Sequence record: NC_070872.1
Strand: one strand, 5' to 3'
Origin: Escherichia phage U1G
Length of the DNA stretch: 64,000 nt
This document shows positions 2,571 to 30,233 of this stretch, piece by piece; position 1 is the stretch's first letter; the number at the start of each line of letters is the position of its first letter. Made by a program: the position numbers and the translations under genes. The notes under the pieces were generated by a model. That model searched no databases. It saw only the letters and a program-made list of their open reading frames with translations, and was not told the DNA's origin.

Positions 2571-3044
2571 ATGGACTGGCATGAACTCTTCTCCTACCGT
2601 GAAGGCAAACTCTACTGGAAGGTTAGTAGTGGCAGAGCTAAAAGTGGGGATATTGCTGGAAGTTTCGACACGTACAGTGGATATGTATATGTCCAAGTAA
2701 AATACCGACATCTTAAGGCAGCTACTATAATCTGGGAAATGCACAACGGTAAATTGCCTGACGGTTATATGGTTGACCATATCAATCACATACGAACAGA
2801 TGACCGTTTAGAAAACCTAAGGGCAGTATCTTCCCAAGATAACAATCGTAATAGAAGTAGAGCTTCTAATAATACGTCAGGTGCAACGGGAGTAAGATAT
2901 GAAGCTGGTAAATGGAGAGTTCGTATAAAGATTAATGGTAAGCTAAAGCATTTAGGTAGATTCAACACTTTCGAAGAAGCTGTAGAAGCTAGAGAGTTAG
3001 CTAACAATGAATATGGTTTCCACTCTAATCATGGTAAGGATTAA
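2571..3044 (+). CDS. HNH homing endonuclease with AP2-like DNA-binding domain
   Basis: GKLYWK...DGYMVDHINHIRTDDRLENLR HNH core, then GVRYEAGKWRVRIKINGKLKHLGRFNTFEEA; paralogous to ORFs at 22280 and 29796. Confidence 0.8.
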   Translation: MDWHELFSYREGKLYWKVSSGRAKSGDIAGSFDTYSGYVYVQVKYRHLKAATIIWEMHNGKLPDGYMVDHINHIRTDDRLENLRAVSSQDNNRNRSRASNNTSGATGVRYEAGKWRVRIKINGKLKHLGRFNTFEEAVEARELANNEYGFHSNHGKD

Positions 3045-3238
3045 TATAATGCGTAAATCACTTATTTTAGGTAATAAATCTGACGTACAGAAGATGAAGG
3101 AACGTCTGGCTACTAAGCAACAGACATCTGAACCAGTACGTAAGATTGTTACCTTCAATCATCCTGATGCATACAAATGAACTGGCCTATCTCAATAACC
3201 ATGCTTGCACTGTTAACCTACGGTGCATTAGTAGAATT

Positions 3239-3270
3239 AGGAGTCCTCCAATAGGAGGCTCCTATTTTTT
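3239..3270 (+). terminator. putative rho-independent terminator
   Basis: aggagtcctcc/ggaggctcct imperfect hairpin followed by ATTTTTT. Confidence 0.5.
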
Positions 3271-3313
3271 ATTCTTGAATAGTTAGATATGTATTTAAAT
3301 AGGAGAAATAACC

Positions 3314-3622
3314 TTGAATGAAATAGTATGTATACTTCCTCACCAAGCTAAAGTAGCTGACAGGAATATACGGGTACATTTACCATTCCCATTAAGTAAT
3401 CCATTTGCTCGTAATGAAAGAACCACGGTAGAAGATATAGAGGTAGCTTATGAGGCTTACCTTCGTAATCGTCTTATTAGTGGTGACAAGTTAATTACAG
3501 CAGAGATGGAAAGGATTGCATCCTTTGTAACAGATAGTACAGGTAAACCCGTTGGTTTAATTGGTACTGAATCTGATGTTAACGTTATTCGTAAAATACT
3601 AATGGAGGCATTAAGCCAATGA
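3314..3622 (+). CDS. hypothetical protein (TTG start)
   Basis: ORF; AGGAG 8 nt upstream of TTG. Confidence 0.5.
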   Translation: MNEIVCILPHQAKVADRNIRVHLPFPLSNPFARNERTTVEDIEVAYEAYLRNRLISGDKLITAEMERIASFVTDSTGKPVGLIGTESDVNVIRKILMEALSQ

Positions 3623-27095: not shown

Positions 27096-28047
27096 ATTAG
27101 TTAGCATAAAGGATAGAGTAACCCTGGATGACTATGACGAGTTAATACAATTAGCTAGTAAATATGGCATGCAGGAACAAGTATCTGAATGCTTTGACTA
27201 TGAGGGTGGATGGTTGTTTTGTGGGCTAGACTTTGCGTCCTTAGAGGATCGCATATCAGCCCTAACAACCAAAGACCCTAATAAATTGCGTGTGTATACT
27301 GACGGGTTTGACGGTCATTCACTCAGAGCTAAATTTTATTTCGGTGAACAAATGCCGGATATTGATGACTCTGTAGAAAGCATCAACTCTATACAGAAAA
27401 AATATAAAGCCTTACGTAGCGAATCGAAAGCACCTACTTTCTTACTGACCTACGGCGGAACTTATATGGGCTTAATGAAAAACTGTGGCTTCTCGGAAGA
27501 GAAGGCTAAATTAATTGAGTCCAGATACCACGAAATGTATACGGTTAGTGATGCCTGGGTTCAGGCTAAGCTAGACGAAGCTGCTAAGACTGGTTATGTA
27601 ACTGCTGCATTTGGTTTGAGAGTGCGTACTCCTTTACTGGCTCAGGTTTTACGTGGGACATGTAAGACCCCATATGAAGCAGAAGCTGAAGGCAGGACTG
27701 CTGGTAATGCATTAGGTCAAAGCTGGTGTCTACTGAATAATCGTGCTGGCTCAGAGTTTATGCGTAAAGTCAGAACCAGTGAGTTCAGATTAGATATACG
27801 TCCTTGTATTCACATTCATGATGCCCAATACTTCATGATTCGTGACAACATGGATACCTTGCAGTACACGAACAAGCACTTGGTTGAAGCCGTTAACTGG
27901 CAAGACCATCCTGATATTGCTCATCCAGAAGTTGGTTTGGGTGGGGAACTATCCTTGTTTTACCCAACGTGGGCTAACGAGATTGAAATTCCAAATCACG
28001 CTACCCCAGATGAAGTTCATCAAATAATTCAAAAGGCATTCGCATGA
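27076..28047 (+). CDS. family A DNA polymerase, C-terminal fragment (palm/fingers)
   Basis: Motif A LDFASLEDRISAL, motif B KAPTFLLTYGGTYMG, motif C IHIHDAQYF; AGGAGAAGG upstream of ATG 27076 (longest ORF starts TTG 27052). Confidence 0.7.
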   Translation: MQDLLNKLVSIKDRVTLDDYDELIQLASKYGMQEQVSECFDYEGGWLFCGLDFASLEDRISALTTKDPNKLRVYTDGFDGHSLRAKFYFGEQMPDIDDSVESINSIQKKYKALRSESKAPTFLLTYGGTYMGLMKNCGFSEEKAKLIESRYHEMYTVSDAWVQAKLDEAAKTGYVTAAFGLRVRTPLLAQVLRGTCKTPYEAEAEGRTAGNALGQSWCLLNNRAGSEFMRKVRTSEFRLDIRPCIHIHDAQYFMIRDNMDTLQYTNKHLVEAVNWQDHPDIAHPEVGLGGELSLFYPTWANEIEIPNHATPDEVHQIIQKAFA

Positions 28048-28349
28048 CTAAAAGTACGAAAGAAACCGTTGTCAGAAAATATCATTGGATGGTAGCAGCA
28101 CAGGTAATCTTCCAGCTTCCCAAAGCTGATGATGGCTCTCTGCTTACCATGAACACAATGCTGCTCACTGATGAACCTTACGTGACTTATAAAGATTTGG
28201 CTCGTGCCAATCACTCTCTGAAGATTAGTCTGGACCAGCGTTTTGATACCTCGGTTGACTTGAAAGACATCGTTTATTTGTCTCTTAGCAACCTGGGTCT
28301 GATGTCTGAATCAAAGTTCCAGGCAAACATGATTCCCAAGGGGGAATAA
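28044..28349 (+). CDS. hypothetical protein
   Basis: ORF; 4-nt overlap. Confidence 0.5.
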   Translation: MTKSTKETVVRKYHWMVAAQVIFQLPKADDGSLLTMNTMLLTDEPYVTYKDLARANHSLKISLDQRFDTSVDLKDIVYLSLSNLGLMSESKFQANMIPKGE

Positions 28350-28822
28350 TGACTAAGCTCTCCGGTGGATTGAATAACTGGTATGTAGTACCAGTTAAGA
28401 ACCCTCAACGGAAAGAGCAAGAGCCATACCAAGCAGAGTGTGAGGATATTATCCAGGCACTGGGCATGACCTTCGATGAAGGTTGTGCCTTTAAAGCTCT
28501 ATGGCGAAATGCTGCTGCCCGTATGGGTAATGGTAAACCTGGAAATACTCCAGTGTATGATTGTGAGAAGCTTGTTCATTATGCTAATCGACTACTTGCT
28601 AAAGCTTACTTTGATTCTAAGGATAGCGGTGAAGTAGTTAAGTTGGAAGAATCCAATACGGATTGGGTTTACAGTAATGAAAGACCATCCTTCATGCGTA
28701 AGTGGAAAAAGCTTGAGTATGAGTACAAAAACCATTGTACAACCTACACATGCTTTCCAGGGGAACCACAGCTACTATCTATTAACTGGGCAGATATTTA
28801 TCGTTATAGGATTACCTACTAA
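28349..28822 (+). CDS. hypothetical protein
   Basis: ORF. Confidence 0.5.
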   Translation: MTKLSGGLNNWYVVPVKNPQRKEQEPYQAECEDIIQALGMTFDEGCAFKALWRNAAARMGNGKPGNTPVYDCEKLVHYANRLLAKAYFDSKDSGEVVKLEESNTDWVYSNERPSFMRKWKKLEYEYKNHCTTYTCFPGEPQLLSINWADIYRYRITY

Positions 28823-29799
28823 TGAAGATAACCAACAACCATGATGTCTCATTGGCTTTGGCTGTATGGCTATTACATGACGAATATGATTATGTAGACA
28901 ATCCTAAGTATCTGTCTGTAACCACACTGCTTAAGCCACTTAAGCAAATCGTCATGAAACATCGTGTAGATCTTAGTGAGCAGTCTATTGACGTTATGGA
29001 TTTCGTCTCCACATCAATGGGTACTGGCTTACATGATTCTATCGAAAAAGCCTGGAAGCTAGGCCATAAGACTGCATTGAAGAAACTGGGTTATCCTCAG
29101 CGAGTCATTGATGCAGTAGTCATTAACCCAACCAAAGCAGACTTTGCTGCTAACCCAGACCTTATCCCAATCTACATTGAACAACGTGGAACCAGAGTAG
29201 TTAAGGGTTGGACTATCGGTGGTAAGTTCGACATCGTAACAGAAGGTCTGTTGCAAGACTTTAAGTCTACCTCAACCTATTCCTGGGTTGCTGGTTCCCG
29301 TGATGATGAACACAAGATGCAAGGTAGCTTGTACCGTTGGATTCACAACGACATCATTACGGAGGATGTAATCCGTATTAACTACATCTTCACTGACTTC
29401 ATGAAACACATGGCTAATAGCAATCCGAACTATCCTGCTAATCGTATTATGCATAAGGATATTCCGTTGTTATCTGTCGATAAGACTGAACGTTGGGTAG
29501 AAGAGAAGATACATCTCATTGAAAAGTACTGGGATGCTCCTGAAGAGGAAATTCCTGAATGTACTGACGAGGAGTTGTGGCGAACAGAGCCACAGTTTAA
29601 GTACTTTTCTGATGCTTCTAAGGTAGATGTACCTGGAGCCAGAAGTACCAAAAACTTTGACGATATGGCATCTGCTCGTATCTTCATGGCTGAAAAAGGT
29701 GGCAAGGGTGCTATCAAGGTCGTGGAGGGGCAGGTTAAAAGATGCCTGTACTGCCCTGTCGCGACCATTTGTGAACAGAGGAAACGATATTACCCATGA
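28822..29799 (+). CDS. putative PD-(D/E)XK-type nuclease
   Basis: GKFDIV...LLQDFKSTS resembles a D...(D/E)xK motif; replication-module context. Confidence 0.3.
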   Translation: MKITNNHDVSLALAVWLLHDEYDYVDNPKYLSVTTLLKPLKQIVMKHRVDLSEQSIDVMDFVSTSMGTGLHDSIEKAWKLGHKTALKKLGYPQRVIDAVVINPTKADFAANPDLIPIYIEQRGTRVVKGWTIGGKFDIVTEGLLQDFKSTSTYSWVAGSRDDEHKMQGSLYRWIHNDIITEDVIRINYIFTDFMKHMANSNPNYPANRIMHKDIPLLSVDKTERWVEEKIHLIEKYWDAPEEEIPECTDEELWRTEPQFKYFSDASKVDVPGARSTKNFDDMASARIFMAEKGGKGAIKVVEGQVKRCLYCPVATICEQRKRYYP

Positions 29800-30233
29800 A
29801 ATTAATACCAATCGAGGTGTACCAACAGGCAGCTCTTGAGTTGTCTTACGATCCAGCCTCCCGTAGTTGCATACGGAAAAATGGTAAGGAAGTTGGAACC
29901 CTCGATGGTAGCGGTTACTGGTTAGTACGAGTAGGCAAGGGCAAAGGCACCTTACTAAAATGCCACCGAGTAGTATGGTTCTTACATCATGGAACCGTGC
30001 CACCCCTCATAGAACACAAAGACAGAAATCCGTCGAATAACCTTATTACTAATTTAAGGGAAGCGACTGAATCGCAGAACAGATGTAATACCCCCAAGCA
30101 CTGCGACAATACGTCTGGTGCTAAGGGTGTTTTCTGGTGCAAGTCCACCTCTAAGTGGATGGTTAAAGTCTGTGTTAACTATAAAACTTATTGGGGAGGC
30201 CGACACGCCGACCTGAAACTGCAATTGCAGTAG
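29796..30233 (+). CDS. HNH homing endonuclease with AP2-like domain
   Basis: HRVVWFLHHG...IEHKDRNPSNN, then GVFWCKSTSKWMVKVCVNYKTYWGG. Confidence 0.75.
   Translation: MKLIPIEVYQQAALELSYDPASRSCIRKNGKEVGTLDGSGYWLVRVGKGKGTLLKCHRVVWFLHHGTVPPLIEHKDRNPSNNLITNLREATESQNRCNTPKHCDNTSGAKGVFWCKSTSKWMVKVCVNYKTYWGGRHADLKLQLQ

Follow-up and report, generated by a model that had tools for sequence, protein, structure and literature searches.

Homing endonuclease genes (HEGs) drive mosaicism in the G7C-like coliphages, where the group that described G7C counted 22 variable loci, mostly HEG-related, and showed, in a preprint, that an intron in gene 16 is genuinely spliced (10.1101/542787). In one phage of this kind, 10GB, the DNA polymerase gene (gene 39) carries an HEG-bearing insertion of about 800 bp with stops in all frames and with a Shine–Dalgarno (SD) sequence and ATG for the C-terminal fragment; no splicing was seen by reverse-transcription PCR (RT-PCR), and two recombinant polypeptides were reported (10.1101/542787). 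Among other N4-like phages, six HEGs are known from Pectobacterium phage CB1 (PMC6027278), and a group I intron has been reported in Vibrio phage pVa5 (PMC5746245). The subject here is a stretch of 64,000 nucleotides (nt) from Escherichia phage U1G (NC_070872.1), the whole of which is called the window, where five HEGs (HEG1 to HEG5) lie between positions 2,571 and 30,233. HEG2 sits in an intron of the ATPase gene gp24, HEG5 splits the DNA polymerase gene gp39, and the other three stand free between or within genes. Read from the sequence, these are very probably five separate selfish cassettes, each encoding a site-specific endonuclease of the His-Me finger kind with an AP2 domain, which spread by intron homing or intronless homing.

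Genes of this kind have well-known counterparts in other phages. The free-standing HNH and GIY-YIG genes of T4 (Mob/Seg) spread by “intronless homing”, are patchily distributed among relatives and co-convert their flanks, and in Aeromonas phage Aeh1 the nrdA gene is split by mobE, the split essential gene working as two polypeptides. In the window, too, endonuclease genes lie between or inside conserved genes, but here in a member of the Schitoviridae, with AP2 tails or a PacI-type core, and the split gene is that of a family-A DNA polymerase. The nearest comparison is with the G7C-like mosaic phages, including 10GB, which belong to the same genus and whose genome differences are likewise dominated by HEG-related loci; both sets include a polymerase insertion and an intron in an essential gene, although the intron described earlier lies in gene 16 and that of the window in gp24, with its splicing predicted, and none of the deposited phage genomes searched contains HEG3 at the junction of gp36 and gp37. 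The elements are thus new examples of well-known kinds of selfish element, and since the phenomenon is already documented in the genus, the present description is of use chiefly as a catalogue of the cassettes and an account of their anatomy.

An initial annotation of the window had called five such open reading frames (ORFs) within 28 kb an unusually high load. That judgement could not be upheld, as five HNH genes (gp2.1, 15.1, 24.1, 41.1 and 47.1) also occur in the corresponding 34 kb of G7C, every one at another site; Mimir124 and pSb-1 have four or more. Judged by these gene counts, five HEGs are a normal load for Gamaleyavirus. Together the cassettes add 3,254 nt, i.e., 11.8% of the span, and searches with phmmer and tblastn, in which the five HEGs together with ten HNH genes from related phages served as queries, found no further HEGs in the window.

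Five cassettes and their endonucleases

Megablast searches of 50,697 phage records with several parts of the region had no matches outside the N4-related, G7C-like coliphages (genus Gamaleyavirus, Schitoviridae), among which Escherichia phage PGN829.1 is closest (96–99% identity over the aligned parts). Alignment with G7C, PGN829.1, NAN33P5, EC1-UPM, phiG17, pSb-1, PhAPEC5 and Mimir124 set the cassette boundaries, and these are base-precise against empty-site relatives for all five insertions, with approximate coordinates for HEG3. Occupancy was counted over the 54–67 phage records that matched each query. The exact HEG1 sequence recurs in two of them (PGN829.1, where it is identical, and Bas96), the intron with HEG2 in NAN33P5 only (missing in about 55 relatives), HEG4 in PGN829.1 and EC1-UPM (missing in about 50), and the polymerase insertion with HEG5 in PGN829.1, phiG17 and ST4, three cultured and viable phages (missing in about 45). 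HEG3 occurs in none of 67, most of which have an empty site about 485 bp shorter. The ORFs are therefore missing from the same positions in most relatives; the remaining records mostly show empty sites, and a minority carry a different HNH gene at or near the site, as do five other phages at the gp42/gp43 junction and five or six further phages with a different insertion of about 700 bp nearby in the polymerase gene. The same or neighbouring sites are, in other words, held by different HNH genes in different relatives.

HEG3 was traced further in metagenomes. Within the phage collection it has no homologue closer than 49% identity, and an exact-sequence look-up returned no record of HEG3, which was instead reached through a 99%-identical cluster representative. 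At least 24 metagenome or Logan contigs carry copies with 99% identity at this junction of gp36 and gp37, and a 74%-identical variant occupies the site in others. The metagenomic genomes that bear HEG3 have an uninterrupted polymerase of 859 amino acids (aa), and the cassettes therefore assort independently.

Beside three of the cassettes, the sequence differs from that of HEG-less relatives more than the surrounding genes do. In bins of 100 nt, identity to these relatives drops to 64–86% beside the HEG3, HEG4 and polymerase cassettes and recovers within 100–400 nt, whereas relatives that share the cassette keep 88–100% across the same bins. For HEG3, the first 100 nt downstream are 70–76% identical, followed by 91–100%; for HEG4, the values are 76–79% downstream and 82–85% in the last 100 nt upstream; and for the polymerase HEG, 64–86% over 400 nt downstream compared with 82–100% upstream. 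The protein encoded by this polymerase flank is 76–96% identical per block of 25 residues, which indicates that the changes are mostly synonymous. This pattern fits flanks that were co-converted or recoded and would be immune to cleavage. The drop is weak at HEG1 (82–86% in most HEG-less relatives, 96% in EC1-UPM) and also at the intron.

Profile searches of the encoded proteins found both HNH and AP2 domains. The four HNH–AP2 ORFs that had been placed at 2571, 10313, 22280 and 29796 are present there, and all score above the Pfam gathering cut-off for HNH_3 (24.8 bits), with 62.5 bits for 2571–3044, 34.6 for 10313–10882, 55.9 for 22280–22777 and 44.9 for 29796–30233. As to the core they were said to share, the pattern DH.D.N..NN...NLR is recognizable in approximate form in all four, but the literal GKLYWK only in the ORFs at 2571 and 22280. 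The AP2-like tail was likewise confirmed in part: only HEG2 exceeds the Pfam gathering cut-off for AP2 (40.1 bits, and 37.3 bits for NUMOD4), the ORFs at 2571 and 22280 remaining below it, but a family profile built from 15 sequences (HEG1, HEG3, HEG4 and relatives) matches the AP2 domain of WRI1 over its C-terminal third (E=2.4e-7). The N-terminal two thirds of the same profile match the structure of I-HmuI (1U3E, E=3e-9), as does HEG2 alone (E=2.9e-11). The family alignment shows no variation at the catalytic histidine or at either asparagine (H69, N81 and N90). All five HEGs match PHROG families of HNH endonucleases at E-values of 1e-44 to 1e-65 (HEG1 matches PHROG 99 at 6e-65), and HEG1 and HEG3 are clear paralogues (43% identity, E=5e-44); NCBIfam placed none of the five proteins in a meaningful family. 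HEG1 to HEG4 accordingly combine the residues of the beta-beta-alpha-metal motif, an attached DNA-binding module and presence/absence polymorphism at a fixed site, as expected of the HNH_3/I-HmuI-like family.

I-HmuI, encoded in the DNA polymerase intron of the Bacillus phage SPO1, is a nickase of one strand. Its N-terminal module and HNH core align with HEG2 and with the HEG1/3/4 family, and like HEG2 it is intron-encoded and lies inside a replication gene. It differs at the C-terminus, where I-HmuI has helical and helix-turn-helix modules and HEG1 to HEG4 have the AP2 domain.

HEG5 is of another type. It has no hit in Pfam and was recognized through the PHROGs (PHROG 374, “HNH endonuclease”, 3e-63), a PDB sequence search and a fold search, which returned a PacI-like fold followed by AP2. 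Its motif LSIDRIDAYKGYSPDNCRWA aligns to PacI, and R127, Y134, N138 and N150 are invariant, together with a set of cysteines assigned to Zn binding, across 40 homologues, in agreement with the His-Me fingers of the PacI type. PacI itself (PDB 3M7K/3LDY, His-Me finger group 20) is a stand-alone restriction enzyme, whereas HEG5 is part of a mobile cassette within a phage gene and adds an N-terminal Cys-rich hairpin and the C-terminal AP2 domain. In the PacI type, a tyrosine of the omega loop takes the place of the catalytic histidine (PMC5714182), and the absence of this histidine from HEG5 does not therefore imply inactivity.

The initial annotation had also placed the HEGs next to or inside replication genes. 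This holds for four of them; HEG1 sits among small early genes (gp2.4/gp6). The features are collected in Table 1.

Table 1. The five cassettes and the genes that they adjoin or interrupt (positions in the window)
Feature	Position	Strand	Remarks
gp6 5′-end remnant	2540..2584	+	First 10 codons, now within a 14-codon dead-end ORF overlapping the HEG1 ATG; 2540–2569 aligns with the G7C gp6 start
HEG1, HNH_3–AP2, 157 aa	2571..3044	+	Cassette 2570–3048; bounded by comparison with G7C, EC1-UPM, phiG17 and pSb-1
Restored gp6	3049..3180	+	First 30 nt (3049–3078) are a recoded duplicate at the 3′ end of the HEG1 cassette
gp24 AAA+ ATPase, exon 1	9882..10195	+	Ends ...LLFL at U10195
Group I intron, T4 td-like IA2, 882 nt	10196..11077	+	HEG2 in P6a loop (predicted)
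HEG2, NUMOD4–HNH_3–AP2, 189 aa	10313..10882	+	GTG start; intron-encoded; domains from Pfam
gp24 ATPase, exon 2	11078..11816	+	Begins (C)GATGAG, the DE of Walker B
Terminator-like hairpin AGCCCCAGTAGGGGC and T run	22246..22267	+	5′ edge of the HEG3 cassette; read from the sequence
HEG3, HNH_3–AP2, 165 aa	22280..22777	+	Cassette ~22234–22802, between gp36 and helicase gp37
Helicase gp37	22725..24077	+	Start at ATG 22725 or 22743; first ~18–25 codons from the HEG3 cassette, overlapping the HEG3 3′ end
Polymerase N-fragment	24628..26442	+	Pfam DNA_pol_A; 579 native codons and a 25-residue insertion-encoded tail, then stop; boundary 26364
gp39 insertion, 843 nt	26365..27207	+	Separates FEAPP from GWLFCGLDFASLEDR, just 5′ of PolA motif A
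HEG5, PacI-type His-Me finger, 218 aa	26439..27095	+	Cys clusters and C-terminal AP2
Polymerase C-fragment	27076..28047	+	Likely ATG 27076, SD-like GGAGAAGG upstream; 44-residue head, then motif A onward
Recoded flank of the polymerase HEG	27208..27607	+	64–86% nt identity to HEG-less, 91–100% to HEG-plus relatives
HEG4, HNH_3(–AP2)	29796..30233	+	Cassette 29798–30278, between exonuclease gp42 and primase gp43

The td-like intron in the ATPase gene

The insertion in gp24 is closest to the td intron of T4 (group IA2, encoding I-TevI), with which it shares the helices P1–P9.2 including P7.1 and P7.2, the ORF in the P6a loop, the U at position -1 and the terminal G, and a location within a conserved catalytic motif. 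The two differ in the interrupted gene and in the enzyme, which are thymidylate synthase and the GIY-YIG enzyme I-TevI in T4, and an AAA+ ATPase and an HNH–AP2 enzyme here. The gp24 intron also has an extended P5, and the signals of its HEG are embedded in the ribozyme, the start codon in P4′/P6 and the SD in P5′.

Joining 9882–10196 to 11079–11816 gives an uninterrupted ATPase of 350 aa that is colinear with G7C gp24. If the boundaries are placed by the U/G rule (10195|11078), so that exon 1 ends in U10195 and the intron in G11077, the protein is the same, as the leucine codon CTT becomes CTC. The junction LLFL|DE falls inside Walker B, and removal of the intron restores the run from LLFL to DEFN. 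An intein was ruled out, as translation in the ATPase frame meets a stop at codon 2 of the insertion.

Within colinear conserved blocks, 31 of 32 nt (97%) across J8/7–P7–P9 are common to the td intron, and threading of the window sequence on the td architecture left all helices from P1 to P9.2 fully paired with HEG2 in the P6a loop. For the analysis of covariation, five introns without their ORFs (that of the window, two from NAN33P5, one from pSb-1 and T4 td) were aligned with MAFFT. In this set, 91.3% of the cells are paired, compared with 31–44% in slid controls, and P3, P4 and P7 are paired throughout; both sides have changed in 30 of 76 pairs, compared with 1–8 in the slid controls, and none of 500 shuffles reached 30. 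Without its ORF, the RNA folds at -109 kcal/mol (z=-4.2) with the local hairpins recovered, and the 195-nt 3′ core has counterparts in 605 phage records, among them the RNA polymerase gene region of the Bacillus phages AR9/PBS1. The suggestion that the ORF at 10313 is intronic is thus borne out by architecture and covariation alike and, by this predicted structure, the ATPase insertion is a td-like group IA2 intron. That its RNA would splice itself is suggested by analogy, namely by the viability of other phages with introns in gp24 (NAN33P5 and pSb-1) and by the splicing of the gene-16 intron.

Comparison with NAN33P5 showed 7 differences in the 312 nt of the ribozyme parts, among them a compensatory pair in P7.1, and 34 in the 570 nt of the ORF. 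Two synonymous exon changes, at -8 and +1, are common to the alleles that carry the intron. Within the genus, gp24 carries introns at three sites, at nt ~200 (pSb-1 and apparently PW8), nt 315 (the window and NAN33P5) and nt ~646 (NAN33P5), all of them td-like and related, each with its own NUMOD4–HNH–AP2 ORF. In the coordinates of the compared sequences, they lie at 21398–22263 and 22598–23479 in NAN33P5 and at about 9945–10812 in pSb-1, where the exon codons at the junction have been recoded synonymously from TTA TCT to CTT AGT. None of these introns is annotated as such in the records examined, and no gp24 intron is mentioned in the papers searched.

Free-standing cassettes, proposed homing and its alternatives

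The three free-standing cassettes interrupt or abut genes for which they bring replacement parts. HEG1 is inserted 30 nt into gp6, and the duplicate of these 30 nt at its 3′ end has 9 mismatches to the upstream copy, the encoded peptides being MRKSLILGNK in the duplicate and MRKSLIMGTK upstream. The HEG3 cassette replaces the terminator of gp36, the ribosome-binding region of the helicase gene and its first ~12 codons; homology to G7C resumes only at 22803, so that the helicase begins with MENLLEAPLFAKSNKKPLN in place of MFSKPTKAPLN, and the position homologous to the hairpin at the 5′ edge holds a different hairpin in G7C. HEG4 begins in an ATGA overlap with the stop of gp42. If one G is restored in it, the 162-aa protein of EC1-UPM results, whose stop overlaps the primase ATG.

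We propose that, upon co-infection with a cassette-free relative, the enzyme would nick or cut the empty allele near the insertion point, and that recombinational repair would then copy the cassette and its adjoining flank from the occupied genome, which would itself be immune, as its flank is recoded. The interrupted genes would be rescued in different ways. In gp24, self-splicing would remove the intron and restore LLFL|DE; the free-standing cassettes would bring a recoded copy of the first ten gp6 codons, a fresh start and N-terminus for the helicase, and overlaps of stop and start codons with gp42 and the primase gene; and the polymerase cassette would provide a stop, an SD-like sequence and an ATG, the two resulting polypeptides having to work together. 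From this arrangement we infer the cleavage specificity of the enzymes, a super-Mendelian transfer of the cassettes, splicing of the intron in vivo, and a polymerase that acts without splicing through the association of its fragments.

Several points weigh against this interpretation. Ordinary recombination between diverged relatives is common in the genus and could also have produced the recoded flanks. Rfam Intron_gpI (RF00028) scores only 23.7 bits (E=0.0014) on the intron, the gathering threshold being 50, and a scan of the whole window against Rfam gave no hit at gathering thresholds; the intron came to notice only by this weaker match and by its homology to T4 td. The low score is explained by the 570-nt ORF in P6a, which interrupts the model, and the gathering threshold is a cut-off chosen by curators that does not define the family. 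Covariation was assessed on no more than five sequences, and the structure itself had been worked out on the sequence of the window. HEG4 is shortened by a 1-nt deletion within 30210–30222 relative to the 162-aa version of EC1-UPM and PGN829.1, and at least the copy in the window may be inactive for this reason, unless the deletion is a sequencing error. The polymerase insertion of 10GB may be another element than that of the window, and the depositors of PhAPEC5 annotate a different polymerase insertion as an intron of 672 bp.

The HNH–AP2 proteins might, alternatively, serve the phage rather than themselves, as nucleases that exclude competitors, as HNH proteins associated with packaging, or as AP2-type regulators. 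Selection on the coding sequences would agree with such a use. Synonymous codon differences outnumber nonsynonymous ones by 45:16 in HEG5, 23:7 in HEG2 relative to the NAN33P5 copy, 12:2 in HEG4, and 4:1 and 52:43 in HEG3, which points to purifying selection on HEG2 to HEG5, the ORFs for which a diverged copy is available; HEG1 is identical to the sole copy fetched (PGN829.1) and offers no such contrast. The family is, moreover, extremely widespread, HEG3 alone matching 1,981 phage records. Against a benefit to the phage stand the dispensability of the genes, which most close relatives lack at the site, an occupancy that is patchy and independent between sites, the location at or inside conserved genes with recoded flanks and not near the terminase, and the presence of one gene inside a predicted self-splicing intron, the classic homing arrangement. 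We regard this explanation as unlikely, although it partly overlaps with homing, as cutting the DNA of HEG-less relatives would exclude competitors too.

It would also be conceivable that the cassettes are fossils, i.e., HEGs that were once mobile and now hitch-hike in an inactive state. The HEG4 frameshift removes the last helix of the AP2 domain, HEG1, HEG3, HEG4 and HEG5 lack obvious SD sequences, and HEG5 lacks the canonical catalytic histidine, all of which such decay would explain. However, the catalytic residues of HEG1 to HEG4 are intact, the Tyr/Asn set of the PacI type in HEG5 is invariant across its homologues, and the excess of synonymous changes in HEG2 to HEG5 speaks for continued function; the missing SD sequences fit translational coupling via ATGA overlaps. 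The loss of one base from a short run of G in HEG4 probably reflects an error of sequencing, since the window has three other single-base losses in homopolymers, in gp25 and gp36. With these similar losses in conserved genes pointing to sequencing error, biological decay of HEG4 would be an unsafe claim, and a fossil state of the cassettes is on the whole improbable.

As to these two genes, gp25 (VWA-like, 391 aa in G7C) appears as two overlapping ORFs, 11824–12327 and 12324–12998, through the loss of 1 nt in a G run relative to G7C (GGGGGGAGC compared with AGGGGT-GC), which is probably a sequencing error and possibly a real frameshift. The gene of the MazG-like NTP pyrophosphohydrolase gp36 (21782–22250) is broken twice, by a change from A6 to A5 near 22005 and from C5 to C4 near 22222; it is intact, with 109–120 aa, in metagenomic genomes with the same HEG3.

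The split DNA polymerase gene

The statement that a fifth ORF (26439–27095) splits the polymerase proved correct, as it is located between the polymerase ORFs 24628–26442 and 27052/27076–28047. The TGA stop of the N-fragment overlaps the HEG5 ATG (ATGA), and because the insertion is exactly 843 nt (3 x 281) long, both polymerase fragments are in one frame. The same C-fragment ORF of 323 aa is annotated in the RefSeq record of phiG17. By analogy with 10GB, the polymerase would be made as two polypeptides, with the stop, the SD-like sequence and the ATG that the insertion itself supplies. The 25-residue tail SCYLPNRTKLDTLIQSLKNTISGAK and the 44-residue head, which begins MQDLLNKLVSIKDRV, are kept in phiG17 and PGN829.1.

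A self-splicing intron, perhaps degenerate, which would yield one full-length polymerase, has been considered for such insertions. The authors of the 10GB study first suspected an intron from RNA folding (10.1101/542787), the PhAPEC5 record annotates a nearby insertion in this way, and a length that is a multiple of three with both halves in the same frame would be in keeping with it. On the polymerase insertion of the window, however, the sole Rfam match, even at E<=10, was a spurious one to an miRNA, no choice of boundaries gives both U(-1) and a terminal G in frame, and the 74 nt on the 5′ side and 111 nt on the 3′ side of the ORF hold no td-like core blocks. An overlap of stop and ATG is present, as are an SD and an ATG for the C-fragment, and the gene-39 insertion of 10GB was negative by RT-PCR and gave two polypeptides. 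With no Rfam signal and the boundary rules unmet, the intron was rejected as the leading explanation of this insertion, and we hold it to be very improbable. An intein is ruled out, since the frame stops 26 codons in and HEG5 is in another frame.

The insertion of PhAPEC5 (5168–5837) carries a different HNH gene and lies 22 codons upstream, after ...RLSASEP in the conserved PNLQ motif; taken with the site in the window, this makes the two most conserved polymerase motifs separate HEG targets.

For the homing cassettes as a whole, a more speculative proposal is that gp24 is a recurrent target of td-like introns, with three independent sites, and that the polymerase cassette, more than a mere disruption, is a co-adapted module whose tail and head act as docking peptides. 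We offer this tentatively and consider it rather doubtful; if true, the two peptides would enable a family-A polymerase to function in two subunits. The region in any case offers a compact natural example of how homing endonucleases may remodel essential phage genes while the phage survives, bringing together three routes of rescue, i.e., RNA splicing for the ATPase, duplicated or replacement starts for gp6 and the helicase, and a polymerase in two polypeptides. For annotation, this would mean that the “two ATPase ORFs” are to be joined as a single intron-containing gene, and that the “two polymerase genes” are one enzyme in two parts and not pseudogenes. Gamaleyaviruses are common candidates for phage engineering and therapy, and the cassettes predict a biased transfer of markers in mixed infections.

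A few features of the wider window may be added. Four of the five HEG ORFs have a GC content of 0.37–0.40, the window as a whole 0.428. The gene order is that of G7C, from the early genes through RNAP1/2, the gp24 ATPase, gp25, dCTP deaminase and thymidylate synthase to rIIA/B, gp35–36, helicase gp37, gp38, DNA polymerase gp39, gp40–41, exonuclease gp42 and primase gp43. A scan of the window found no tRNA genes. The GC skew changes sign near position 38000, consistent with a G7C-like switch from rightward early and middle genes to leftward late genes. The ORF at 9521–9847 has a signal-like hydrophobic segment at its N-terminus, and homologues in several relatives are annotated as “Tai4” (type VI amidase immunity-like); in other relatives, this region upstream of gp24 is replaced by a different sequence. 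Finally, a block of 100 nt in gp36 (21934–22033) is 55–60% identical to most relatives including PGN829.1 and 92% identical to phiG17, and looks like a local recombination patch with no visible insertion linked to it.

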